Shown: in pieces, positions 4,168-18,212 of the stretch | Position numbering within the stretch: position 1 is the first letter of the stretch | How the letters are laid out: the number at the start of each line of letters is the position of its first letter | From: Chloroflexota bacterium | Lineage (GTDB): Bacteria > Chloroflexota > Limnocylindria > QHBO01 | Direction: 5' to 3' | DNA: 35,063 nt | Assembly (NCBI GenBank): GCA_031370085.1 | Contig: JANMPX010000190.1 | Coordinates: forward strand, 1-35,063 | The notes under the pieces: model-generated | Seen by the model: only the letters and a program-made list of their open reading frames with translations | Told to the model about the DNA's origin: nothing | Databases searched by the model: none | Translations under genes and position numbers: made by a program

Positions 4168-4563
4168 ATGAGGCGGTTCCGAGTGACATGGCTGATCGGC
4201 GTGCTCGCGGTCGCGGGTTGCGGAACCTCCGTCCCAACAACCAGCCAGCAGGCGCCGGTCTTCCAGCTGGATTCCGCGTCCGTGACCTGTCAGGACGAGA
4301 GGGTTGGTGTCGAGCTCGCGATAGAACATGCGCAGGCCCAGCCGGGCTACCTCGATTGCATCACCGGGGCGCTCCAGGTCGATCCCGATGGGACCATCTG
4401 GCTCTGCAGCATCGTGGCGGGCGCCGGCGCACCGCCCTGCGATGGCCTTCGACTGCGGGTCCAGGGCCTCGATGCGGGCATGGTGGATGTGATCTGGCAC
4501 GCGGCACCGGAGGTCCGCTGGTCGGATCCCATCAAGCTTCTCGGACGGGTGCGTTTTGGCTGA
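4168..4563 (+). CDS. small secreted lipoprotein, unknown function
   Basis: The signal peptide has a lipobox: MRRFRVTWLIGVLAVAGC-GTS. The mature part carries four further Cys. A -10-like GACAAT at 4155-4160 lies 7 nt before the ATG. Confidence 0.65.
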   Translation: MRRFRVTWLIGVLAVAGCGTSVPTTSQQAPVFQLDSASVTCQDERVGVELAIEHAQAQPGYLDCITGALQVDPDGTIWLCSIVAGAGAPPCDGLRLRVQGLDAGMVDVIWHAAPEVRWSDPIKLLGRVRFG

Positions 4564-4594
4564 TCGGCGGCGGCCCCGTGCGATAATCGGCCGC

Positions 4595-6118
4595 GTGACG
4601 CTCGTCAAGAAGCCGGAGAGCCGCCCGGCCCCTGCCTCGTGGGGCCTCTCCGCGCGCGGGATCCCCTGGGAATACGCCCCCGCCCCCGAGTCGACCGATC
4701 ACATCCAGATTCGGCCGCAGTACGGCCTGTTCATCGACAACGAGTTCTCCCCGAGCCGGCCCAAGGCAACCTTCGAGGTGATCAACCCGGCCACCGAGGA
4801 GCCGTTGGCTCGCGTGGCCAGGGCCTCCAAGGCCGATGTCAACCGGGCCGTCGTCGCCGCCCGCCGAGCCCACGACACCGTCTGGTCCCTGCTGCCCGGC
4901 AGCGAGCGGGCGAAGTACCTGTACCGCATCGCGCGGATCATCCAGGAGCGCTCCCGCGAGTTCGCGGTGGTCGAGACCATGAACTCCGGCAAGCCGATCA
5001 AGGAGAGCCGCGACGTCGACGTTCCGCTTGCCGCGGCGCACTTCTTCTACTACGCAGGCTGGGCCGACAAGCTCGACTACGCCTTCCCCGGCCGGCGCCC
5101 GAGATCGCTCGGCGTTGCCGCCCAGATCATTCCGTGGAACTTCCCGCTGCTGATGCTGGCCTGGAAGATCGCGCCGGCACTGGCGGCCGGCAATACGGTC
5201 GTGCTCAAGCCTGCCTCGACGACGCCGCTGACCGCGTATCTCTTCGCCGAGGTGGTGCGCCAGGCAGACCTGCCGGCGGGGGTGGTGAACATCATAACCG
5301 GGCCGGGCGAGATCGGTATGGAGCTGGTCCGACACCCGGACGTCAACAAGATCGCGTTCACCGGCTCGACCGCCGTTGGCAAGTTGCTCGCCCGCGCGGT
5401 CGCGGGAAGGCGCCAGACGCTGACACTGGAGCTCGGCGTCAAGGCGGCCCACATCGTCTTCGACGACGCGCCGCTCGACCAGGCGATCGAGGGGATCATC
5501 AACGGCATCTATTTCAACCAGGGCGAGGTGTGCTGCGCCGGGTCGCGCCTCTTCGTCCAGGAATCGATCTACGAGCCGCTCCTCGACAAGCTCAAGGCGC
5601 GCCTCTCCACCCTGCGAGTCGGCGACCCGCTCGATAAGAACACCGATGTCGGCGCGATCAACTCGGCCGGCCAGCTGGCCAAGATCGCGGAGCTGGTGGC
5701 CTCGGGGATCGAGGAGGGGGCGGAGATCTTCCAGCCCGACTGCGTCCTGCCGGACCGTGGCTTCTTCTTCCGGCCGACCCTCTTCACCGGGGTCAGCCAG
5801 AGCCATCGGATCGCCCAGGAGGAGATCTTCGGGCCGGTCCTGTCGGTCCTCACCTTCCGGACCCCCGAAGAGGCGGCTGAAAAGGCCAACAACACGCCCT
5901 ACGGGCTCTCAGCCGGGGTGTGGACCGAGAAGGGAAGCCGCATCTTCAAGATGGTGGGCGCCATGAAAGCCGGTGTGGTGTGGGCCAACACCTTCAACCG
6001 ATTCGACCCCACCTCCCCATTCGGCGGCTACAAGGAGTCCGGTTACGGCCGCGAGGGCGGAATCCACGGGCTGGGCGCCTATCTCGACCTGTCTGCCGAC
6101 GGGGCCAACGGCCGATGA
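4595..6118 (+). CDS. NAD(P)-dependent aldehyde dehydrogenase (full length)
   Basis: ALDH motifs are collinear: IIPWNFP, VLKPAS, FTGSTAVGK, LELGVKAA (general-base Glu), GEVCCAGSR (catalytic Cys), EEIFGPV and PFGGYKESGYGRE. The start is ambiguous between GTG 4595 and TTG 4556. Confidence 0.9.
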   Translation: MTLVKKPESRPAPASWGLSARGIPWEYAPAPESTDHIQIRPQYGLFIDNEFSPSRPKATFEVINPATEEPLARVARASKADVNRAVVAARRAHDTVWSLLPGSERAKYLYRIARIIQERSREFAVVETMNSGKPIKESRDVDVPLAAAHFFYYAGWADKLDYAFPGRRPRSLGVAAQIIPWNFPLLMLAWKIAPALAAGNTVVLKPASTTPLTAYLFAEVVRQADLPAGVVNIITGPGEIGMELVRHPDVNKIAFTGSTAVGKLLARAVAGRRQTLTLELGVKAAHIVFDDAPLDQAIEGIINGIYFNQGEVCCAGSRLFVQESIYEPLLDKLKARLSTLRVGDPLDKNTDVGAINSAGQLAKIAELVASGIEEGAEIFQPDCVLPDRGFFFRPTLFTGVSQSHRIAQEEIFGPVLSVLTFRTPEEAAEKANNTPYGLSAGVWTEKGSRIFKMVGAMKAGVVWANTFNRFDPTSPFGGYKESGYGREGGIHGLGAYLDLSADGANGR

Positions 6119-7098
6119 GCCCGCGCGCCCGTCCGGTCGCCACCCGAACGCCCGCCAGACGCCGTGTCGGCGTGCTCGACGCGCACGCAGCGCAGCCGCT
6201 CGCGACCGCGGCGCCCGGGGTCGAACGCCTCGGCGTGCGCAAGACCTACAAGCTGTACATTGGTGGGGAGTTCCCGCGCACCGAATCGGGGCGCGCCTAC
6301 GAGGTCTTGGGCGCGCGCGGCGAGTCACTGGCCAACGCCTGCCGCGGTACGCGCAAGGACATCCGTGATGCGGTCCGCGCCGCGCGCAAGGCGCAGCCGG
6401 GCTGGTCGTCGAAGACCGCCTACAACCGCAGCCAGATCCTGTACCGCATCGCGGAGCTGATGGAGGGACGGCGCGACCAGTTCATCGCCGAGGTGATGGC
6501 CAGCGAGGGGATCGGCCGCCAGCGCGCCAGCCGGCTGGTGAACGCCGCCATCGATCGCTGGGTCTGGTACGCAGGCTGGGCCGACAAGTACGGCCAGGTG
6601 GTCGGCACCGTCAACCCGGTGGCGGGAAGCTACTTCAACTTCAGCGTGCCGGAGCCGACCGGCGTGGTCGGCGTCATCGCGCCGGAGGGCTCGAGCCTGC
6701 TCGGCCTGGTCAGCCGCCTTGCCCCGGTGATCGTCTCGGGCAACTGCGCGGTGGTCCTTGCCTCGGAGTCGCGACCCCTGCCAGCCGTCACCCTGACCGA
6801 GGTGCTCGCGACCTCGGATGTGCCCGGTGGCGTGGTCAACCTGATCACCGGGCTTCGACGCGAGCTCGTCTCGCACCTGGCCGGGCACATGGACGTCAAC
6901 GCGCTCGACGCATTCGGCCTGGAACCCGGGCAGATCGCCGCCATCGAGGAGATCGCCACCGAGAACGTGAAGCGCGTGGCGCGCCCGCCGGTAGCGGGCC
7001 TCGAGGCCTTCGACTGGCTGTCATCGGCAGCGCAGTCGCCCTACCTGATCGGCGAATTCGTCGAGATCAAGACGGTCTGGCACCCGATCGGCGCGTAG
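6115..7098 (+). CDS. aldehyde-dehydrogenase-like protein lacking the catalytic domain
   Basis: ATG 6115 overlaps the upstream stop (ATGA). It aligns to the neighbouring ALDH through the NAD-binding half (YKLYIGGEF..., WYAGWADKYG, GGVVNLITG, MDVNALDAFG). It then jumps straight to the C-terminal strand (YLIGEFVEIKTVWHPIGA). No WNFP, ELGG or Cys motifs are present. Length is 327 aa against roughly 500 for a full ALDH. Confidence 0.75.
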   Translation: MSPRARPVATRTPARRRVGVLDAHAAQPLATAAPGVERLGVRKTYKLYIGGEFPRTESGRAYEVLGARGESLANACRGTRKDIRDAVRAARKAQPGWSSKTAYNRSQILYRIAELMEGRRDQFIAEVMASEGIGRQRASRLVNAAIDRWVWYAGWADKYGQVVGTVNPVAGSYFNFSVPEPTGVVGVIAPEGSSLLGLVSRLAPVIVSGNCAVVLASESRPLPAVTLTEVLATSDVPGGVVNLITGLRRELVSHLAGHMDVNALDAFGLEPGQIAAIEEIATENVKRVARPPVAGLEAFDWLSSAAQSPYLIGEFVEIKTVWHPIGA

Positions 7099-7912
7099 GC
7101 GGCCCCCGCTTTCGGGGCCGGAGATGGTCGACCTGGGGCCTGCCGGATACGGCCCGCTCGATCTCAGCTGCCACGAAATCAACATGCGGTCGAAGGTGGG
7201 CCTGAAGGTCGTCCGAGCGGTCCTGCGCCTCGCCGACGTAGACGGCTCGTGCCCGGGCAAAAACCGCGCGGTGCTCTTCGGGGAGACGCGGAAGGACCCA
7301 GTCCGCCGCGGCGTCCTTTGATCGGATCGCGCCGGTCGCGGCGGTGGTCCAGATTCGGGCGAGCGTGAGTACGACATTCACTGTATCGGGCTCAAGATCG
7401 TCGAGCAGACCAGGGATGCCGGCGGTGATGGCTCGGATCAGGTCATCGTGCGGGACGGGGTCAAGGACTTCGGCTGGTGGTGGTCCGAAGAGCGATCGGT
7501 CTCCGAGCAGCACCATCGTGATCAGCGGAGCGAGGTCCGGACTCTTGTCTGACGCGGATGGCATGCCGCCTCGCTCGATGCCGGTCCGCATCCACTCGCC
7601 GTACTGGAACTCAAGCCGGGGCGCATATCGCCATGGCTGCACGTCGGTCTGGACGACAATCGTCAGCTCAATCGGGCGTGGCGCCCCGGGCTGACCCCAA
7701 CGGCCCGAGATGAGGAGCAGCCCGTCGACGAGCGCTCGCCGCTCCTCGCGCGTCAGGCGGCGCTTGGAGACCACGAGGACGTCCGTGTCACTGCGAGGTC
7801 GCAGCCCGCCGAGCACCGCGGAGCCATGCTGATATGCGCCGATAACGTCCTTGCCAAGCACCTGGCGAACCAGGTTCACGATCTGATCGACCTGCTCCAG
7901 GCGCAAGCCCAT
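7067..7912 (-). CDS. AadA-like aminoglycoside nucleotidyltransferase family protein (ANT(3'')/ANT(9)-type, NTase + DUF4111)
   Basis: Similarity to AadA as I remember it is collinear: HGSAVLGGLRPRSDTDVLVV, PWRYAPRLEFQYGEW, LFGPPPAEVLDPVP and NVVLTLARIWTTAATGAIRSKDAAADW. The C-terminal roughly 27 aa is a run-on tail that overlaps the convergent ALDH-like gene by 32 nt. Confidence 0.85.
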   Translation of the reverse strand: MGLRLEQVDQIVNLVRQVLGKDVIGAYQHGSAVLGGLRPRSDTDVLVVSKRRLTREERRALVDGLLLISGRWGQPGAPRPIELTIVVQTDVQPWRYAPRLEFQYGEWMRTGIERGGMPSASDKSPDLAPLITMVLLGDRSLFGPPPAEVLDPVPHDDLIRAITAGIPGLLDDLEPDTVNVVLTLARIWTTAATGAIRSKDAAADWVLPRLPEEHRAVFARARAVYVGEAQDRSDDLQAHLRPHVDFVAAEIERAVSGRPQVDHLRPRKRGPPTRRSGARPS

Positions 7913-7916
7913 CGGC

Positions 7917-9230
7917 CTAGACTAAGCCCAGCCAGCCGGCAAGCGTGGACCCGAAGAGCACAAGGGTCAGCAGGATCACCAGCCCGGTGAGTCCCCAGGC
8001 CAGCACGTTCAACCAGGTCGGGTTGGTGTGGCGGCCCATGATCCGCGGGTTGTTCACCAGGCGCAGCATGAAGACCAGGATGATCGGCAGCAGGATCCCG
8101 TTCAGGTTCTGGCTGACGAGGATGACCCCGATCAGCGGCAGGCCCGGCACGAGCACCACCACGGCGCCGATGAGAATCAGGGCGGTGTAGAGGCCCATGA
8201 AGGCCGGCGCCTCGCTGAACTTGCGCGAGACGCCCGACTCCCAGCCGAACGACTCGCATACCGCGTAGCTGGTCGTCAGCGGCATGACGGTTGCCGCCAG
8301 GACCGATGCCCCGAACAGCCCGAACGCGAAGAGGGCCTTGGCGAAGTTGCCGGCAACCGGCGCCAGGGCGAGCGCGGCCTGGTCGGCGCTTTCGATATGG
8401 ATCCCGCGCGGGAAGATGGTCACCGCGGTGACGACCACGATGAAGAGGGCGATCGTGTTGGTCCAGATGCCGCCCAGGATCGCGTCGGTGCGCCCCAGCG
8501 GCAGCTCCTCTGGCCCCAGCCCCTTGTCGGCGACCGAGGACTGCAGGTAGAAGAACATGTACGGGGTGACGGTGGTGCCCACCGTGGCCACCATCAGCAG
8601 CAGCGCGCTTGGCGCCAGGTCGATCGATGGATTGACCAGCGCCCGCCCGACCTGTCCCCAGTCCGGTCCGGCCACGAAGGCGCTCACCACGTAGGCCCCG
8701 AAGACGACCGCCACCGACAGGAAGACCCGCTCCACGACCCGGTAGCTGGCGAACACGACCAGCGCCCAGATCCCGGCCGCTACGATCGGCACGGTGGCAT
8801 ACCGTGGGATTCCGAAGATCTCCAGCGCGGCCGCCGCGCCGGCGAACTCCGCCACGATGTTCGCCCCGTTCGCAAGCAGCAGCACGATCATGGCGAACAG
8901 GGTCCAGCGGATGCCGAAGTCGTCGCGGATGAGGTCGCCAAGTCCCTGCCCCGAGACGGCACCCATGCGCGCCGCCATCTCGAGCACCACCACCAGCAGG
9001 AGGGTGGTGATCGGGAAGATCCAGAGCAGCGAGAGGCCTGTCTCGGCGCCGAGGACGCTGTAGGTGGCGATGCCGCCGGCATCGTTGCCGGCCAGCCCCG
9101 CGATCAGGCCGGGGCCCATCACGCCCAGAAAGGCGAGCACCCCGGAGCGATGCACGCGGAAGTTCGGCAGCCGCTCGCGCAGCGAGCGCTGCGCGCGCCG
9201 GATCGGGCGGGGAATGGCCAGGCGGGTCAC
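7917..9230 (-). CDS. NRAMP/SLC11-family transporter with non-canonical metal site (NRMT-like, putative Mg2+ carrier)
   Basis: A polytopic protein with the Nramp N-terminus GVMGPGLIAGLAGNDAGGIATYSVLGAETGLSLLW. TM1 DPGN reads DAGG, and TM6 A-x-x-M-P-H reads GTTVTPY. The GTG start lies 3 nt after the upstream stop. Confidence 0.85.
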   Translation of the reverse strand: MTRLAIPRPIRRAQRSLRERLPNFRVHRSGVLAFLGVMGPGLIAGLAGNDAGGIATYSVLGAETGLSLLWIFPITTLLLVVVLEMAARMGAVSGQGLGDLIRDDFGIRWTLFAMIVLLLANGANIVAEFAGAAAALEIFGIPRYATVPIVAAGIWALVVFASYRVVERVFLSVAVVFGAYVVSAFVAGPDWGQVGRALVNPSIDLAPSALLLMVATVGTTVTPYMFFYLQSSVADKGLGPEELPLGRTDAILGGIWTNTIALFIVVVTAVTIFPRGIHIESADQAALALAPVAGNFAKALFAFGLFGASVLAATVMPLTTSYAVCESFGWESGVSRKFSEAPAFMGLYTALILIGAVVVLVPGLPLIGVILVSQNLNGILLPIILVFMLRLVNNPRIMGRHTNPTWLNVLAWGLTGLVILLTLVLFGSTLAGWLGLV

Positions 9231-9233
9231 GCC

Positions 9234-10502
9234 TCAGCGCTCCTCGGCCGACTCATAGATCTCGGGCAGGCGCTTGCGCCAGCCCTCACCGAGTGCGCGC
9301 TCGAAGGCGTCATCGACGGTGACGATCCCCTGCATGCGCCCGTCCGCGTCGACCACCGGCAGAGCCAGCAGGTTGTAGCGCGCGATCGCCGCGCCGACCT
9401 GCTCGGCATCCACGTTGAGCGCCACGCTGATCGGGTCATGACGCATGAACTCGCTGACCGGGGTCTCTGGGCGCGCCACGATCAGGCCCCGCAGGGTGAT
9501 GGTGCCGACCAGGATCCCGTCCGGATCGGTCACGTAGAGGTAGTAGATCTGGTCGGCGTCGGGATGCAGCTCGCGGAGCATGTCGATCACCCGCTCGGCG
9601 GTCTGGTCGGGCGTGATGGTGATGAAATCGGTGGTCATCAGGCCACCGGCCGTCTCCTCGCCGTAGGCCAGCAGCTCGCGCACGTCGGAGGCCTCCTCGG
9701 GCTCCATCAGGTTCAGCAGCTCCTCCTGTCGCGCCTCCGACAGATCGGCAACCAGGTCGGCCGCCTCGTCCGGCCCCATCTCTTCGAGGATGTCGGCGGC
9801 CTTCTCTGGCGACAGTGCCTCGAGAATGTCGACCTGGTCGTCGGCGGCCAGCTCCTCGAGCACGTCCGCCGCGCGCTCGTCGTCCAGCGAGGCGAGGATG
9901 CCGGCACGGTCGCGCGGGGCCAGCTGCTCGACGATATGCGCGACGTCGGCCGGGTGCAGCGTGCCGAGCGCCTGGTGGGGGACTCGCAGCTTCAGGCTCG
10001 AGACGCTCGACTCGACCGGATCGACGTCCTCCCACTCGATGTAGTTCTCGGCCTCGAGCCCCACCGCCTTTGCCAGCCGCTCTCCCGGCCCGGACAGGCC
10101 GAGCCTGCGCAGGATCCCGGCGAGGCCCACATCGACCGCCACGAGTCGGAGCCGCCCCTCGACGGGGGCCAGCTGGATATCGTTGACGCGCACGATCTTG
10201 CGGCCCTCGACATCGACGATCTGCTTGTCCTGCAGGTCGAGCCAGAGCCGGATCTCATCGGGGCGCTGCCGAAAGGTCGTGATGTCGATGCTCGAGGTGT
10301 GCAGCCGGGCGCCGGACTCGTCGATCTCCTCGACATCGGTCCAGGGCAGGAAGATCTCGCGTCCGCCCGCGACCCGCAGGACGAGCCCGGTGACCGGCGG
10401 GTACTGCTCGCCGAGGGCCACGATCAGGTCGCGGACCTTGCCGAATGGCTCGCCGTTGCGGTCCAGGACCGGACGGCCGATGAGCTGGCTCAGGAAGAGC
10501 AT
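9234..10502 (-). CDS. soluble PRC-barrel / MgtE N-domain / CBS-pair protein (MgtE sensor module without pore domain)
   Basis: The N-terminus has PRC-like repeats (LIGRPVLDRNGEPFGKVRDLIV..., IVDVEGRKIVRVNDIQL). The MgtE_N helices follow (DVLEELAADDQVDILEALSPEKAADILEEMGPDEAADLVADL) and then the linker ETAGGLMTTDFITI. Two CBS motifs follow. The ORF ends with no hydrophobic segments. Confidence 0.85.
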   Translation of the reverse strand: MLFLSQLIGRPVLDRNGEPFGKVRDLIVALGEQYPPVTGLVLRVAGGREIFLPWTDVEEIDESGARLHTSSIDITTFRQRPDEIRLWLDLQDKQIVDVEGRKIVRVNDIQLAPVEGRLRLVAVDVGLAGILRRLGLSGPGERLAKAVGLEAENYIEWEDVDPVESSVSSLKLRVPHQALGTLHPADVAHIVEQLAPRDRAGILASLDDERAADVLEELAADDQVDILEALSPEKAADILEEMGPDEAADLVADLSEARQEELLNLMEPEEASDVRELLAYGEETAGGLMTTDFITITPDQTAERVIDMLRELHPDADQIYYLYVTDPDGILVGTITLRGLIVARPETPVSEFMRHDPISVALNVDAEQVGAAIARYNLLALPVVDADGRMQGIVTVDDAFERALGEGWRKRLPEIYESAEER

Positions 10503-10738
10503 GGGACGACCACCTCGCCTTCGCGTCGGAGGAGCTGTGACGCGTGCGGGTGGCCGATGGGTCGCGAACGGGGGGCGCCGAGCGGAACGCTAGGCGGTCG
10601 CCCTCCCGTCGGCCGATGGCCGCGGGCACGCGCAGATTCGACTACCGGAACCGGCGTCCACGTTGGATCGCGCTTCGCCTCGATGTGGATTTGGTCGGGC
10701 CGATGCCACGGCGTGCTCGCCGTGAGGCCGCGCTGATT

Positions 10739-11386
10739 CTAGACCGGCGCGGCGCCCGCGTGAACCCCGGCGTCGACCTTGCCGCGGGCGCGGTGGCGAG
10801 CCACCTTGGCCTGGTTGCCGCAGGTCCGCATGTCGCACCAGCGACGTCGTCCGGTCGGGGAGCGATCGACGAAGACCCAGCGGCAGTTCGGGTTGCCGCA
10901 GACGCGCAGCCGGTGCGCGGCGTCATCGGCCAGGAATTGCGCAAACGAGCTGGCGATGATGGCGCGCGCCTGGTCGAGCCGGTCGCCGATCTGTGCGAAG
11001 GAGTAGCTCGTTTCCTGGGGGTCAAGGCGCAGCTGGTGGAAATGCAGCCCGTGGCGGAGGATGTGGTTGAGGTCGCGTAGCTGTCCTGCCGTTGGACGCC
11101 CGTGCTCGACCACGGCCTCGGCCAGGTCGTGGAGCAGGCCGCGGAGATGGTGGAAGCGCTCCAGGCGTCGGGCAGCCTCGGCCGGGTCGCGGTGCAATCG
11201 CCCCGCCTCTGCGGCCCGGGCTCGGTCGCTGATCAGACCGTGGCCGCGCAGCCAGGTGAGGAGGGCATCCACATCGGGCAGGTGGTCGGTGTCCCTGCTG
11301 CGGCTGTGCTGCAGCGTATTGGAGAAGGCCGCGAACAGATCATCAGCCTCGTCCGGCCCGAAGCGTATGGCCTGGGTGAGTGTCAT
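10739..11386 (-). CDS. CGNR zinc-finger (ABATE-domain) putative transcription regulator
   Basis: The C-terminus is RLRVCGNPNCRWVFVDRSPTGRRRWCDMRTCGNQAKVARHRAR, the zf-CGNR signature with a CGNQ variant. Confidence 0.85.
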   Translation of the reverse strand: MTLTQAIRFGPDEADDLFAAFSNTLQHSRSRDTDHLPDVDALLTWLRGHGLISDRARAAEAGRLHRDPAEAARRLERFHHLRGLLHDLAEAVVEHGRPTAGQLRDLNHILRHGLHFHQLRLDPQETSYSFAQIGDRLDQARAIIASSFAQFLADDAAHRLRVCGNPNCRWVFVDRSPTGRRRWCDMRTCGNQAKVARHRARGKVDAGVHAGAAPV

Positions 11387-11389
11387 CTT

Positions 11390-11474
11390 GTAACCACTAT
11401 ACAGCGGTTGACAAGTTACTCACCCGGCGCTACCATACCCAATGGTAACCGTTCATCACGTCCTTATTAGTTAC
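11390..11474. promoter_or_regulatory. two copies of an inverted repeat GTAAC-N20-GTTAC (11390-11419 and 11445-11474), candidate operators
   Basis: GTAAC occurs at 11390 and 11445, and GTTAC at 11415 and 11470. Internal spacing is an identical 20 nt and the copies are offset by 55 nt. They sit in the lowest-GC stretch of the window, between the CGNR gene and the small ORFs. Confidence 0.45.
11408..11436 (+). promoter_or_regulatory. sigma-70-type promoter candidate (TTGACA-17 nt-TACCAT)
   Basis: An exact -35 hexamer lies at 11408-11413, followed by a 17-nt spacer and a TAnnnT -10 at 11431-11436. It points towards the small ORFs. Confidence 0.35.
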
Positions 11475-11500
11475 ACGTTTCCGCGACGGGAGGCAAATGA

Positions 11501-11581
11501 ATGATTGGATTGGTGCTGATCGTGGCGGTGATGGTGGCCTTCGACCTCGCCGCCGTTCGTTGGGGAGCGGACAGCCGTTGA
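11501..11581 (+). CDS. 26-aa hydrophobic micropeptide candidate (MIGLVLIVAVMVAFDLAAVRWGADSR)
   Basis: GGGAGG at 11488-11493 lies 7 nt before the ATG. Third positions are G/C-rich in this frame but not in the overlapping ATG-11497 frame. It has a single TM-like segment. It is below the ORF-track length cutoff. Confidence 0.4.
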   Translation: MIGLVLIVAVMVAFDLAAVRWGADSR

Positions 11582-11670
11582 CCCTACGCGACAGCCGCAT
11601 CGAAGGCCTGATACCGACGACCACATAGGGATCGCTCGCGCGATACCCAGAAACCACTGAGAGGAATCCC

Positions 11671-11832
11671 ATGAGCCGAGGCGCAACCTATCTCGGGCTA
11701 CTCGCCGCGCTGAAGCAGGAAGAGATGCTGTACGAGGCACGACGCCGACAGCGTTCGACCGACGTGATCCGTCGCCGCCGCGGCCGATCGCTCGGCGCGA
11801 CCCTGCTGCGCGTGCTGCGCGGCAAGCGCTAG
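11671..11832 (+). CDS. 53-aa highly basic small protein candidate (MSRGATYLGLLAALKQEEMLYEARRRQRSTDVIRRRRGRSLGATLLRVLRGKR)
   Basis: GAGAGGA at 11659-11665 lies about 6 nt before the ATG. It ends at TAG 11830-11832 and is followed by a terminator-like hairpin. Confidence 0.4.
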   Translation: MSRGATYLGLLAALKQEEMLYEARRRQRSTDVIRRRRGRSLGATLLRVLRGKR

Positions 11833-11852
11833 TCGCAAGCCCACCATCGACA

Positions 11853-11886
11853 CGGCCCGGACCCCGAACAGGGACCGGGCCGTTTC
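11853..11886 (+). terminator. intrinsic-terminator-like hairpin
   Basis: CGGCCCGG (11853-11860) pairs with CCGGGCCG (11875-11882). Inner CCC/GGG pairs extend the stem, and TTT follows. Confidence 0.5.
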
Positions 11887-11901
11887 CATTGCCTGCGTAG
11901 A

Positions 11902-14549: not shown

Positions 14550-15380
14550 ATGATGACGCTCGGAGAGACCGACAGCACGGGCCGCCAGCGACGCCATCTC
14601 TCGGAGTTGGCGATCATCCAGTCGACCCAGGGCGACTGGGAAGAGGCGGTCGCCACCAACCGCCAGCTGCTCGAGCTTGGCGCCGATACCGATACCTACA
14701 ACCGCCTCGGCAAGGCGCTTGCCGAGCTCGGCCGGAACGCCGAGGCGCTCGAAGCCTACGAAAAGGCGCTCGAGCGGGACGCCACGAACCGGATCGCCGA
14801 GCGGAACGTGGCGCGTATCCGCGTCATGATGGCGGGCGAGACTACCGCCGTCGGCGACGGCAAGCAGGAGAAGGCGACCGCTGCGCACTTCATCGAGGAG
14901 ATGGGCAAGACCGGGCACGCTCGCCTCATCAACTCTCCGCCGGCGAAGCAGCTTGCCTCGCTTTCGCCTGGCGACGCGGTAGAGCTGCAGCTCGACGGGG
15001 GCCTGCTCGGAGCCCGGGTCGGCGATCTCGAGATTGGCCAGGTCGAGCCGCGCGTCGGCACCCGCCTTGCCAAGCTGATCAAGGGCGGCAATCGCTACGA
15101 GGCGGCCATCACGACCGTCGATCGGGCTGAGGTGCGGATCATCATCCACGAGGTCTTTGCCGACCCGGAGAACATTGGCAAGGTGTCCTTCCCGGGGAAT
15201 TCGGGTACGCGGGCAGGTGACGTCAGGCCGTACATGAAGGGGACCCCGCTCCGCTACGATGACGAAGAGGAGTCCGAGGAGAATGAGGAGGAGTCCGAGG
15301 AGGTCGAGGAGCTCGACACCAGCCTCCCTGAATTCTCCGCCGAGCCGGACCTCGAGGAAGAGCTGCTCGAAGAACCGTAG
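14550..15380 (+). CDS. TPR-repeat protein with beta-rich middle domain and poly-acidic C-terminal tail
   Basis: TPR-like repeats are present (GDWEEAVATNRQLLELGADTDTYNRLGKALAELGRNAEALEAYEKALERD). The middle region is LSPGDAVELQLDGG...IGQVEPRVGTRLAKLIKGGNRYEAAITTV. The tail is DDEEESEENEEESEEVEELDTSLPEFSAEPDLEEELLEEP. Confidence 0.8.
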   Translation: MMTLGETDSTGRQRRHLSELAIIQSTQGDWEEAVATNRQLLELGADTDTYNRLGKALAELGRNAEALEAYEKALERDATNRIAERNVARIRVMMAGETTAVGDGKQEKATAAHFIEEMGKTGHARLINSPPAKQLASLSPGDAVELQLDGGLLGARVGDLEIGQVEPRVGTRLAKLIKGGNRYEAAITTVDRAEVRIIIHEVFADPENIGKVSFPGNSGTRAGDVRPYMKGTPLRYDDEEESEENEEESEEVEELDTSLPEFSAEPDLEEELLEEP

Positions 15381-15386
15381 GAGCCG

Positions 15387-18212
15387 ATGAACGAGGGCGA
15401 CCGGAAGCGACTGGATCACGTGGTCCTTCCCCGCCGCCTTCCCGGGCTCGCTCTGCTTGAGCGCTACTTCCCCTCGCCGGCGGACAACCAGCTGGATGCC
15501 GAGCTGGCCGCGTTTGCCCATGCGGGAGACATCGTGCTCGACCCTTGGGCGGGCACCGGCTGGACCGCGCGGCGCGCCATTGCGCAGGGGATGCGGGTGG
15601 TCGCCGCCGATCCGAGCCCGTTTGCGCAACTGGCCGCGCAGGCGTTCCTGCTCGCTCCCGACCCCGCGGCGCTGGATGCCGCCTTCAACCAGCTCGCCTC
15701 GTCCCGTCGGGTCGACGTGCCGCTGCGCCAGCACATCGAGGAGCTGTACGCGACGCGGTGCGCCGCATGCCGGCGGCCGGTGGTCGGCGATCAGTTCATC
15801 TGGCCGCGGGACGGGGACGCCCCCGGCCGCAAGATCTATCGGTGCTCGAATTGCGACGTCGCGGTCGGCGGACCCGAAGAACGGGTGGCCCCGGTCGACG
15901 ATGGCGACCTGGCCAAGCTCGGTATCGACCGTCCCGCCGCGACGCTGAGCGCAGAGGTGTCGGATCTGGCGCCTGACGCCGACGAGGATCTGCCGCCGGC
16001 ACCCATCGGCCTGACCCGGGCGCCCGAACCGGACGATGACCACGCCGCCACGCTTGGCGAGCCAGGAGGTCCGCCGCCGCCCCCGGTCAGCGCGCCGGAC
16101 CCGCCTGGCGGGGGGACTCGCGCCGCGCGACCGCGTTTCGCCTCGACCGTGCATCCGGATCCGGCGCCTGCGCCAAGCACCGACATACGCCAGAGCCTTC
16201 ACTACCAGCAGCTGCGCGACCGCTTCCCGGTGCTCGACGGGCACGACGACCTGCTCGATGAGCTGCTCGACCTGTACACGCCGCGGAACCTGTACGCGCT
16301 GCAGACGATCGCCAGCAAGATCGATGCCGAGTTCCGCGACCCGCCGCTGGCTGCCATCTTCCGACTGGCGCTGGCTGCCTGCCTGCTGCCCGGCAGCCGT
16401 CTGAACGGGTACCCCGGTCGCGTCGCGTCACTGCGCATCAGCGGAGGGCACGTCCGCCAGCCGGCGTCGCGGCATCAGCGCGAGGTGAACGTGTGGCGGC
16501 TCTTCGAGTCGGCCGTGACCGATGTGGGGATTGCGCTGGCGGCCATCGGGCGGGATCGACGGCAGGCCCGATTCGCTGCCGACCTCGAGGAGCTGACCGG
16601 GGTCGGAGCCGCCAACGTGCTCTGGATTCGCTGCCGGCCGGCCGTGGTGGGGCAGTACCTGCCGGCCGACGGGCTGGATTTTGTGCTCGGGTCGGTCGCG
16701 CCGCCGGCCAGCGTCGATGAGCTCAGCTTCGAGTACCTGGCGACCGCATGGCTGATCGGGCGCGAGGCGGCGGAGACGCTGCGCCTGGAACCGCTCTTCG
16801 GCGCCCAGCAGACACGGGCCGCGGCGGCCGAGGCGACCGCCCTCCGTCACGCGATGGCATCGGCGACCGGAACCCTGAAGCCCGGAGGCTGGTGCAGCGT
16901 GCTGATGGAGGGCTCCGACCCCGAGCGGATGCTGGCGGTGGCGGTGGCCGGTGCAGCAGCCGAACTGGTCCTGGTGGACGTCATCCTGCGCGAGTCGGTG
17001 CGCTCCGGCGACGGGGTGACGTTGCACTTTCGCAAGCCATCCGCCGTCGAGCGGACTTCGGAGGCTGCCGAGCTCGCGCCACTGCGTCTCGGCGAGGAAG
17101 ACGGCCGCCTCACCTACCCCGAGCTCGCCGATGCGATCGAGCGATCAGCGGTTGCCCTCCTCCGCGAGAGGGGCGAGCCGGCCGGGCTGCTGCGCATCGC
17201 CGCGGCGCTCCTGGTCGATCTGCAGCGCACCAGCCTCTTGCGCCGCGTGGCGACGGCGCGCGGCGCTTCCACGGAGGATTTGAGCGAATTGCCCGAAGAG
17301 AGCGCCGACGAGGCGGAGCGCCGGGATCGAAGCGGTGCCGCCCTCCTGTTGAGCCTGCTGCGCGAAGAGTTGGAGCGCGATGACCACCCTTCGCTCCTAC
17401 AGGTCGGCGAAGGCGAGCGACCCACCTGGTGGCTGCGACAGCCGGAGCTGATCGAGGCGCCGCTCGCCGATCGCGTGGAGTGGGCGGCCTTCTCGGTGCT
17501 CACCACGGCCGGCCGGCTCGACGAGGCCTCGTTCTTCGAGCGCATCTTCGCTCTCTTCCCGGGCACCGGATCACCTGACGAGGAGCTTGTGCGCGCCTGC
17601 CTTGCGGCATACGCGGCGGTCGGTGAACGCGGGCAGCTGCGGAGCGAGGAGACCCTGGCCGGGCGCCAGGAGGACCATGCACGGATGATCGGCACCCTGG
17701 TCGACTATGCCCATCGGCTCGGTCTGCGGGCGTGGGTGGCCCGCAACGAGCAGGACCGGGTCGATCGTGGCGCGCCGCTCGGTCACCGGCTGGGTGAAGA
17801 CGAGCGACGGGCGTATCTGCCGCTGGTGGTCCGCGCGCCGGCAGAGGCGCTGAACGCCGTCGACGCCATCTGGTACCTGCGCGGCCGACTCGCCTTCCTA
17901 TTCGAGGTCGAATGGACCGCGATGCTGGGTGAACCGATCCTGCGCAACGGCCGACGCATCGATCCCACCGAGCAGCAGGCGAGATTCATCGTCTTCCCCG
18001 CGGAACGCGCGGACCTCCTTCGACTCAAGCTCGAGCGCTCACCGTGGCTCCGCGACGAGGTGGCACGCCAGAACTGGCATTTCCTGAAGTGGCAGCATCT
18101 GGACACGCTTGTCGCGCGTGATGGAGCGAGCCTTGAGTGGCTCGAGCCGGTGCTTGGCCTCAACCCGCTCATCGAGCGCGGCGGTCAGCAGCTGACCATC
18201 TTCGGCGAGTGA
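15387..18212 (+). CDS. large Zn-ribbon SAM-methyltransferase-like protein (COG1743-like layout, degenerate DPPY motif) with C-terminal nuclease-like domain
   Basis: Motif I is DIVLDPWAGTGWT, followed by VVAADPSPFA. A CxxC...CxxC ribbon spans C125-C156. Further elements are LYTPRNLYAL, DFVLGSVAPPASVDELSFEYLATAWL at the DPPY position, and LKPGGW. The C-terminus is VDAIWYLRGRLAFLFEVEW. The gene starts 6 nt after the TPR gene. The reading frame is secure; the function is not. Confidence 0.8.
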   Translation: MNEGDRKRLDHVVLPRRLPGLALLERYFPSPADNQLDAELAAFAHAGDIVLDPWAGTGWTARRAIAQGMRVVAADPSPFAQLAAQAFLLAPDPAALDAAFNQLASSRRVDVPLRQHIEELYATRCAACRRPVVGDQFIWPRDGDAPGRKIYRCSNCDVAVGGPEERVAPVDDGDLAKLGIDRPAATLSAEVSDLAPDADEDLPPAPIGLTRAPEPDDDHAATLGEPGGPPPPPVSAPDPPGGGTRAARPRFASTVHPDPAPAPSTDIRQSLHYQQLRDRFPVLDGHDDLLDELLDLYTPRNLYALQTIASKIDAEFRDPPLAAIFRLALAACLLPGSRLNGYPGRVASLRISGGHVRQPASRHQREVNVWRLFESAVTDVGIALAAIGRDRRQARFAADLEELTGVGAANVLWIRCRPAVVGQYLPADGLDFVLGSVAPPASVDELSFEYLATAWLIGREAAETLRLEPLFGAQQTRAAAAEATALRHAMASATGTLKPGGWCSVLMEGSDPERMLAVAVAGAAAELVLVDVILRESVRSGDGVTLHFRKPSAVERTSEAAELAPLRLGEEDGRLTYPELADAIERSAVALLRERGEPAGLLRIAAALLVDLQRTSLLRRVATARGASTEDLSELPEESADEAERRDRSGAALLLSLLREELERDDHPSLLQVGEGERPTWWLRQPELIEAPLADRVEWAAFSVLTTAGRLDEASFFERIFALFPGTGSPDEELVRACLAAYAAVGERGQLRSEETLAGRQEDHARMIGTLVDYAHRLGLRAWVARNEQDRVDRGAPLGHRLGEDERRAYLPLVVRAPAEALNAVDAIWYLRGRLAFLFEVEWTAMLGEPILRNGRRIDPTEQQARFIVFPAERADLLRLKLERSPWLRDEVARQNWHFLKWQHLDTLVARDGASLEWLEPVLGLNPLIERGGQQLTIFGE

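Follow-up and report, generated by a model that had tools for sequence, protein, structure and literature searches.

A soil Chloroflexota copy of the gene pair for an NRMT transporter and an MgtE-like soluble protein, and a candidate Mg2+-sensing role for the partner

Can a soluble protein built like the cytosolic Mg2+ sensor of MgtE regulate, in trans, a metal carrier of an unrelated fold? The question is raised by two adjacent minus-strand genes in contig JANMPX010000190.1 (assembly GCA_031370085.1) of a soil Chloroflexota bacterium, analysed here over a stretch of 35,063 nucleotides that we call the window. An open reading frame (ORF) at 9234-10502(-) encodes a soluble protein of 422 residues, hereafter the partner. 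It is followed by an ORF at 7917-9230(-) for a transporter of 437 residues and by one at 7067-7912(-) for an ANT/AadA-like product of 281 residues, with gaps of only 3 nt (9231-9233) and 4 nt (7913-7916). The first-pass annotation, made from the letters of the window alone, gave these three co-directional genes and their gaps exactly; it proposed that an MgtE-derived sensor regulates the carrier, and took the pairing to be undescribed. The pairing had in fact been reported, with the same feedback idea, by Shin et al. 2014 (PLoS Genet 10:e1004429, PMC4072509). That paper names the NrmT group, notes that a gene for a homologue of the MgtE cytoplasmic domain adjoins most NrmT genes, and speculates that the MgtE-like protein is a chaperone or provides feedback control from the cytoplasm. 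The locus is a soil Chloroflexota copy of this published gene pair and not a new kind of system. What it can still inform is the function of a very widespread partner protein, addressed in 2014 by one inconclusive co-expression test, together with comparative details of the pair. Close relatives of both window proteins are encoded by metagenome-assembled genomes of Chloroflexota / Candidatus Limnocylindria.

The transporter and its soluble partner

The 437-residue product (7917..9230, minus strand) was assigned as an NRMT-type (SLC11-related) divalent cation transporter from its Pfam match, its closest known structure and its metal-site signature. Its match to Pfam Nramp (PF01566) is full length (E 3.5e-87, profile positions 1-355 of 357). 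In a search of the PDB the best match by far was EleNRMT (7qia; 373 bits, E 2e-110, 47.1% identity, 395 gapless residues), whereas canonical Nramp/MntH structures reached 91 bits or less. Against the NCBIfam MntH model NF001923 the protein scored 122 bits, below the 430-bit cutoff. Alignment with DraNramp placed D50-A-G-G53 at the canonical D-P-G-N of helix 1 and G218-T-T-V-T222-P-Y224 at the canonical G-A-T-V-M-P-H of helix 6, in agreement with the first-pass annotation, which had read these motifs as DAGG and GTTVTPY in an NRAMP homologue. The window protein thus shares PF01566, the LeuT fold and the helix-1 Asp with canonical MntH/Nramp proteins (DraNramp, ScaDMT, EcoDMT), but has DAGG and TTVTPY in place of their DPGN and A/CxxM(P)H motifs (A-x-x-M-P-H in helix 6). 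The published NRMT metal-site signature is DxxG-TxxA/T (eLife 2022, PMC8806188). D50-A-G-G53, which aligns with D55-A-G-G58 of EleNRMT, conforms to DxxG (Asn replaced by Gly), and T219-T-V-T222 conforms to the helix-6 motif TxxA/T (Ala replaced by Thr, Met by Ala or Thr). Given the 47% identity to EleNRMT, the scores of 373 versus at most 91 bits and this exact fit to the signature, homology clearly assigns the transporter to the NRMT clade, outside canonical MntH, as a Met-less protein of the kind that had been suspected.

Several functionally relevant positions of EleNRMT (7QIA, 7QIC, 7QJI, 7QJJ; Ramanadane et al., eLife 2022) are shared by the window protein: the DAGG motif, the Thr that contributes an extra oxygen (T224 in EleNRMT, T219 here), the helix-3 Glu (E128) and the helix-10 Gln (Q374). 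Both proteins have also lost the proton-pathway His residues of helix 6b, whose positions are occupied here by Y224 and L229, neither of them protonatable. Mutation of Thr224 abolishes the interaction of EleNRMT with Mg2+ (PMC8806188), and EleNRMT transports Mg2+ and Mn2+ with no H+ coupling (eLife 2022). It had been claimed that the Asn, Met and His ligands of canonical NRAMPs are all replaced in the window protein; the replacements are real, but the His of the sixth transmembrane (TM) helix is part of the proton pathway and not a metal ligand (PMC8806188). Loss of the helix-6b His residues is consistent with uncoupled transport. Mg2+ is the presumed physiological substrate in this organism.

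The two proteins differ at the Met position, which is Ala in EleNRMT (TxxA) and Thr in the window (TxxT), and at the first His position, which is Trp in the former and Tyr in the latter; both variants lie within the published TxxA/T signature. Among 80 NRMT loci and 150 representatives (50% identity), about half of the clade belongs to an Ala/Trp subtype (GTTIAPW, as in EleNRMT) and half to a Thr/Tyr subtype (GTT[IV]TPY, as in the window), with 45 Thr and 35 Ala at the Met position of the 80 genome loci. Because the clade divides about evenly in this way, the Met-to-Thr replacement is a standard NRMT variant.

The partner (9234..10502, minus strand) was delimited by Pfam and by its match to 2yvy. 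It comprises PRC barrel 1 (residues 2-62, 10317..10499; PF05239, E 3.3e-14, 53 bits), PRC barrel 2 (about residues 80-135, 10098..10265; a second PRC stretch with a conserved motif), MgtE_N (residues 182-283, 9654..9959; PF03448, E 1.7e-28, full profile 1-102), a CBS pair (residues 288-402, 9297..9641; two Pfam CBS stretches, 2.7e-19) and a C-terminal basic tail (residues 403-422, 9237..9296) that reads W-R-K-R-L-P and was recognised in an alignment of 67 partners; the coordinates of these parts are all on the minus strand. PRC-barrel-like repeats followed by an MgtE N domain and a CBS pair had been predicted beforehand, and Pfam recovers each of these parts. The two PRC stretches were also found when the N-terminal 172 residues were scanned alone. 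The PRC score of the partner is 53-55 bits against a Pfam gathering cutoff of 21.2, although barrel 2 on its own reaches 19.5 bits, slightly under that cutoff, and a PRC match was present in 41 of 41 diverse members of the partner family. Together the PRC barrels make up 40% of the protein. A PDB profile search with the PRC region returned marginal matches only (MTH1895, E 0.13; reaction-centre H subunit, E 0.8).

Barrel 2 is the most conserved segment of the partner. It carries a near-invariant motif, DKQIVD..G.K.VRVND...VDVG..G.LRRLG, in which Q94, D97, R105, N107, D108, G129 and R132 are invariant across the 41 sequences, and its mean majority-residue frequency in the 67-partner alignment is 0.70, compared with 0.65 for MgtE_N and 0.58 for the CBS pair. 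The tail follows the consensus W-[KR]-[KR]-R-L-P-x-[LIV]-[FY] in the 67 partners and occupies the position of the MgtE plug helix. The comparative data thus describe a protein of fixed design in four parts, with MgtE_N and a CBS pair set between the two PRC barrels and the basic tail. The window protein is highly acidic, with 83 Asp and Glu residues and a net charge of -43. An AlphaFold2 model built on 25 aligned sequences (87-98% identical) has a mean predicted local distance difference test (pLDDT) score of 56, with values of 80-94 in MgtE_N and a poor model outside it, a result of the near-identity of the input sequences; only the MgtE_N and CBS folds find support in this predicted structure.

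Residues 173-401 of the partner align to the cytosolic domain of Thermus thermophilus MgtE (TtMgtE; 2yvy, E 3.5e-41), and against the NCBIfam mgtE model TIGR00400 the partner covers profile positions 25-249 of 450 only, with 167 bits against a cutoff of 232.75. The PF01769 pore domain gave no match in the partner, nor did hydropathy reveal any hydrophobic or TM segment (maximum 19-residue Kyte-Doolittle value 1.33); PF01769, TIGR00400 and hydropathy agree that the five-helix pore with its Mg1 Asp is lacking, as had been proposed. By homology, the partner is a stand-alone relative of the MgtE cytosolic domain. Compared with MgtE of T. thermophilus (2YVX, 2YVY), with which it shares a homologous N domain and CBS pair, it has no five-helix pore and no Mg1 site, carries a basic tail in place of the plug helix, and has an additional tandem PRC-barrel N-terminus, so any pore that it regulates is a separate protein of the LeuT fold. 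The earlier label of a "split MgtE" is misleading: the partner family is old, widespread and independent, with its own tandem PRC-barrel N-terminus, and does not stem from a recent fission in this genome. As far as the available text goes, Shin et al. 2014 term the partner a small MgtE-like fragment and do not mention PRC barrels, and we found no paper in the searchable literature that combines "PRC-barrel" with "MgtE". As far as can be told, the system has been described without two of its features, the tandem PRC barrels and the basic tail, neither of which turned up in the searchable literature.

In two actinobacterial metagenome-assembled genomes (L046:4060-5973 and L066:4114-5976) the partner is longer, at 620-637 residues, with a hydrophobic region of about 200 residues after the CBS pair. 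This region gave a sub-threshold PF01769 match (24.9 bits against a cutoff of 27.6, E 2.6e-5), and the long partner may be a membrane-anchored or an ancestral full-length PRC-MgtE form encoded beside an NRMT.

The Mg2+ sites of MgtE described by Maruyama et al. 2018 (PMC5882242) were mapped onto the 67 NRMT partners. Mg2+-dependent closure of MgtE is driven by its Mg4, Mg6 and Mg7 sites, whose acidic ligands are kept. For Mg6, TtMgtE D95 corresponds to D249 of the window protein and is Asp in 67/67 partners, and for Mg7, E59 corresponds to D213, acidic in 65/67. The Mg4 residues D91 and D247 correspond to D245 and D398, which are Asp in 50-51 of 67 partners and in 35/35 from Thr/Tyr subtype loci. 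Of the Mg5 pair, D250 corresponds to E401, a position that is acidic in 62/67, and D226 to N377, a position that is mostly Asn or Gly. The plug-helix residues E258 and D259 of Mg2 and Mg3 are lost, the window protein having its basic tail at this place. The candidate ligands at the interface between the N domain and the CBS pair are accordingly D213, D245, D249, D398 and E401, with D226 replaced by N377.

The adenosine triphosphate (ATP) site of MgtE (Y170, R187, D188, N203, F227; Tomita et al. 2017, PMC5529423) is kept less well. The phosphate-contacting residues are retained as Y321 and R338, whereas D188, N203 and the adenine-stacking F227 are replaced by G339, R354 and L378. As the Phe227 position is aliphatic in all 67 partners and the Asn203 position is not conserved across them, ATP modulation in the style of MgtE should not be assumed. 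The partner thus keeps the interdomain Mg2+ ligands of MgtE without its ATP-stacking residue.

Conservation of the pairing and its link to magnesium

We assessed the pairing from both sides. An NRMT-anchored scan of 185,579 species genomes yielded 80 loci, 77 of them evaluable for an upstream partner, spanning Chloroflexota, Syntrophales, Clostridia/Bacillota, Actinomycetota, Myxococcota, Margulisiibacteriota, Saganbacteria, Saccharimonadales and others. A partner-anchored scan, with a 7-sequence partner alignment as the query, yielded 80 metagenome loci, of which 76 were evaluable. A partner ORF of the PRC-MgtE_N-CBS type (about 418-425 residues) lay immediately upstream on the same strand in 74/77 NRMT-anchored loci. 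Conversely, NRMT lay directly downstream in 66/76 partner-anchored loci, and in 2 more it was adjacent in another orientation (68/76). Since both independent scans agree (74/77 and 68/76 loci), the adjacency is far beyond chance, and the expectation that it would be conserved in related genomes is confirmed. Over many phyla, about 90-96% of the loci couple the partner to NRMT; the pairing is frequent and strong in both directions without being obligatory. Three NRMT loci (L037, L039, L060) have no partner despite 6 kb of upstream flank.

Eight partner loci from metagenomes have no NRMT nearby (L123, L126, L130, L141, L144, L145, L146, L153). Their neighbours are thioredoxin-like, histidine-kinase-like and other genes, and these eight partners also carry the conserved RLPRLF-type tail.

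At the junction (9228..9245, minus strand), read directly from the sequence, a Shine-Dalgarno-like GAGGAG (9240-9245) lies within the 3' end of the partner gene and is followed by the TGA stop codon (9234-9236), GGC, and the GTG start codon of NRMT (9228-9230). In related loci the junction typically ranges from a 4-nt overlap (-4) to about +35 nt. The best explanation of this layout is a two-gene operon, partner then NRMT, with translational coupling. The NrmT operons of Shin et al. 2014 (C. acetobutylicum Ca_c0685; A. capsulatum Acp2976/Acp2977) have the same order, with the MgtE-like gene upstream of a transporter of the NRMT clade; the partner gene is single in the window and split in two in C. 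acetobutylicum.

It was also observed that the two window genes lie in one reading frame, separated by TGA-GGC, such that read-through of a single stop codon would yield a fused sensor-transporter polypeptide. The shared frame is probably a coincidence, because the frame relation differs among relatives, in which 4-nt overlaps are common.

Such conservation bears on two alternatives. The gene order might be conserved but incidental, with no functional meaning, which would agree with the one negative co-expression test of Shin et al. 2014. We regard this as very improbable: the order is kept over at least 7 phylum-level groups, across which identity has fallen to 31-64% in the PRC region (tblastn, closest relatives excluded) and 37-60% in the MgtE_N/CBS region, the stop codon of one gene overlaps or all but reaches the start codon of the next, and the pair in Clostridia stands as a unit behind one Mg2+ riboswitch. 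At the other extreme, NRMT might be one half of an obligate two-subunit carrier, inactive or unstable without its soluble subunit. Near-universal adjacency and translational coupling fit such an arrangement, but the partnerless loci L037, L039 and L060 do not, and two homologues already contradict it: CabNRMT complements B. subtilis without the partner (PMC4072509), and transport by EleNRMT in proteoliposomes was described with the partner never mentioned. An obligate complex therefore has very little in its favour, and the first-pass term "two-component carrier" overstates the case.

The evidence for magnesium comes from relatives. No M-box was found in the window at the Rfam gathering threshold, nor in the leader region 10400-11900 at E up to 10, and none was found in 4/4 Chloroflexota loci scanned (L010, L017, L019, L040). 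In three Clostridia/Bacillota loci, by contrast, Rfam identified M-box aptamers (107-154 bits) directly upstream of the partner-NRMT pair (L053:4335-4506, from Clostridium puniceum; L078:4329-4495; L071:3479-3639), and all three transporters read GTTITPY, the Thr/Tyr subtype to which the window protein belongs. These M-boxes tie the subtype, though not the window locus, to Mg2+-responsive expression. For Shin et al. 2014 (PMC4072509) the M-box serves as a marker of Mg2+ specificity; it does not define the NRMT clade, being found in a subset of its members; it is present in C. acetobutylicum and absent, as in the window, from A. capsulatum.

The absence of an M-box from the window fits a further alternative, which concerns the substrate and overlaps the feedback model considered below: here, as has been suggested for the A. 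capsulatum pair, the two proteins might form mainly an Mn2+ uptake system whose partner senses Mn2+. Acp2977, which likewise has a partner and no M-box, fully rescued a mutant in Mn2+ transport and only weakly rescued Mg2+ transport (PMC4072509), and EleNRMT carries Mn2+ too. The metal-site subtype of the window (DAGG, GTT[IV]TPY), however, is the one found behind M-boxes in the three Clostridia/Bacillota loci, the site lacks the soft Met, a ligand with a preference for transition metals, and T219, the equivalent of the Thr that EleNRMT needs for its interaction with Mg2+, is retained. We consider a mainly Mn2+-dedicated pair unlikely, though of the alternatives weighed here it deserves the most attention.

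A possible brake on Mg2+ uptake

We favour a model in which an uncoupled uniporter for Mg2+ (and Mn2+) is served by a trans-acting cytosolic Mg2+ sensor that limits influx by negative feedback, and put its probability at roughly 55%. The cytosolic domain of MgtE senses Mg2+ with low affinity, in the millimolar range, and responds by a conformational change (PMC5882242, PMC5529423). NRMT would be a uniporter, probably without proton coupling, that brings in Mg2+ and probably Mn2+ as well. As cytosolic Mg2+ rises, it would bind the retained acidic sites at the interface of the N domain and the CBS pair (the Mg4, Mg6 and Mg7 equivalents) and compact the partner, as in MgtE. The compacted partner would then dock on the cytoplasmic face of NRMT and restrain uptake. 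Docking would use modules that MgtE does not have, namely PRC barrel 2 and/or the basic tail in the place of the plug helix, and such a brake would be useful for an uncoupled carrier. No part of the partner is better conserved than PRC barrel 2, which makes it the obvious place to look for the docking surface. The data establish what both proteins are, how they are built, that their genes stay adjacent, that the sensor residues are kept and that relatives have Mg2+ riboswitches; the physical interaction, the direction of regulation and the docking surface are all inferred. A trans-regulatory role is the most plausible one for the partner. If regulation were demonstrated, one Mg2+-sensing module would be seen to control two structurally unrelated transport machines, and there would be an explanation of how a cell with an uncoupled Mg2+ uniporter escapes overload.

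A more specific version can be offered only tentatively, at somewhat less than even odds. The partner would be a dedicated trans-acting regulatory subunit, an MgtE sensor moved to a LeuT-fold carrier, with the PRC barrels and the W-[KR]-[KR]-R-L-P tail replacing the covalent link through the plug helix. In that case the Mg2+ sensor would be a portable module, employed here as a brake on an uncoupled uniporter.

Several observations weigh against the feedback model. In the only experiment reported on such a partner (Shin et al. 2014, PMC4072509), co-expression of Acp2976 with Acp2977 left the Mg2+ rescue unchanged, and Acp2977 of A. capsulatum mainly rescued an Mn2+ defect. The same source reports that CabNRMT alone complements B. 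subtilis deficient in Mg2+ transport and that neither Ca_c0685 nor Ca_c3329 needs the partner to rescue Mg2+ transport. EleNRMT was characterised in proteoliposomes (eLife 2022, PMC8806188) with no mention of the partner gene in that structure paper, and the Cellier 2022 review does not mention it either. Without an M-box in the window, nothing at the locus itself ties it to Mg2+. Within the partner, half of the Mg5 site is missing, with Asn or Gly in place of D226, and nothing is left of the plug sites Mg2 and Mg3, while the aliphatic residue at the adenine-stacking F227 position in 67/67 partners indicates that MgtE-type ATP recognition is not conserved. The AlphaFold2 model is poor in the PRC region, with pLDDT below 50 for residues 1-178. 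Finally, some of the genes stand alone: about 10% of those for the partner and about 4% of those for NRMT have no counterpart nearby.

The unchanged Mg2+ rescue would also fit a role other than gating: the partner, as an acceptor or chaperone for metal in the cytosol, would receive Mg2+ or Mn2+ from NRMT in its inward-open state and buffer it or pass it on, with no control of the rate. Shin et al. 2014 named this alternative (PMC4072509), and the extreme acidity of the partner and its several retained divalent-cation sites agree with it. Yet the homologous domain of MgtE is a millimolar conformational sensor rather than a carrier, a chaperone seems unnecessary where free cytosolic Mg2+ is abundant, and the strongly conserved PRC barrel 2 and basic tail look like a surface for protein docking. 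A chaperone role is accordingly a distinctly unlikely reading, less so than incidental gene order or an obligate complex, and feedback control by the partner is retained as the preferred model.

Neighbouring genes

Upstream of the partner, 236 nt away and on the same strand, lies a gene with ABATE and zf-CGNR domains (10739-11386(-)), a putative stress-induced regulator. The ten closest relatives (L001-L009, L027) have it at the same place and in the same direction; one further locus gave a weak match (L067), and the gene was not found in more distant NRMT loci. A consensus scan of the region gave one promoter-like signal, a sigma-70-like match TTCACG-17-TAGAAT (10736..10764, minus strand) at the start of the 236-nt leader before the partner; it agrees with the consensus at 9/12 positions and is weak evidence. 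Elsewhere in the window, an ORF for 941 residues (15387-18212(+)), directly after a TPR-repeat gene (14550-15380), has gene-like codon statistics (G+C content at third codon positions, GC3, 0.84) and no Pfam match at E up to 1e-4.

The third co-directional gene had been listed together with the other two. Its product of 281 residues (7067-7912(-)) is an ANT(9)/AadA-type aminoglycoside nucleotidyltransferase (above the NF010309 cutoff; AadA_C 1.8e-33), and the gene starts 4 nt past the NRMT stop codon. It is absent from 80/80 related NRMT loci, its GC3 is 0.75 compared with 0.91-0.93 in its neighbours, and in nucleotide alignments it appears as an extra stretch of about 810 bp. In L001 and L027 the NRMT stop codon lies about 10 bp from a convergent aldehyde-dehydrogenase-like gene, and in L002, L003 and L005 this variable intergenic spot holds different inserts. 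Because it is missing from the 80 loci, atypical in GC3 and located at a variable spot, the ANT gene falls outside the partner-NRMT unit; it is apparently a resistance-type gene gained only in the lineage of this soil Chloroflexota genome.

Two consecutive ORFs of the aldehyde-dehydrogenase family lie on the opposite strand (4556-6118(+) and 5920-7098(+)), and the second covers the N-terminal half of the Pfam profile only (positions 15-232 of 461). Truncation of this ORF by the ANT insertion was considered and ruled out, since relatives have the same short ORF. It is conserved at 74-91% identity in L003, L005, L007 and L008 and is a real truncated paralogue, not damage left by the ANT insertion.

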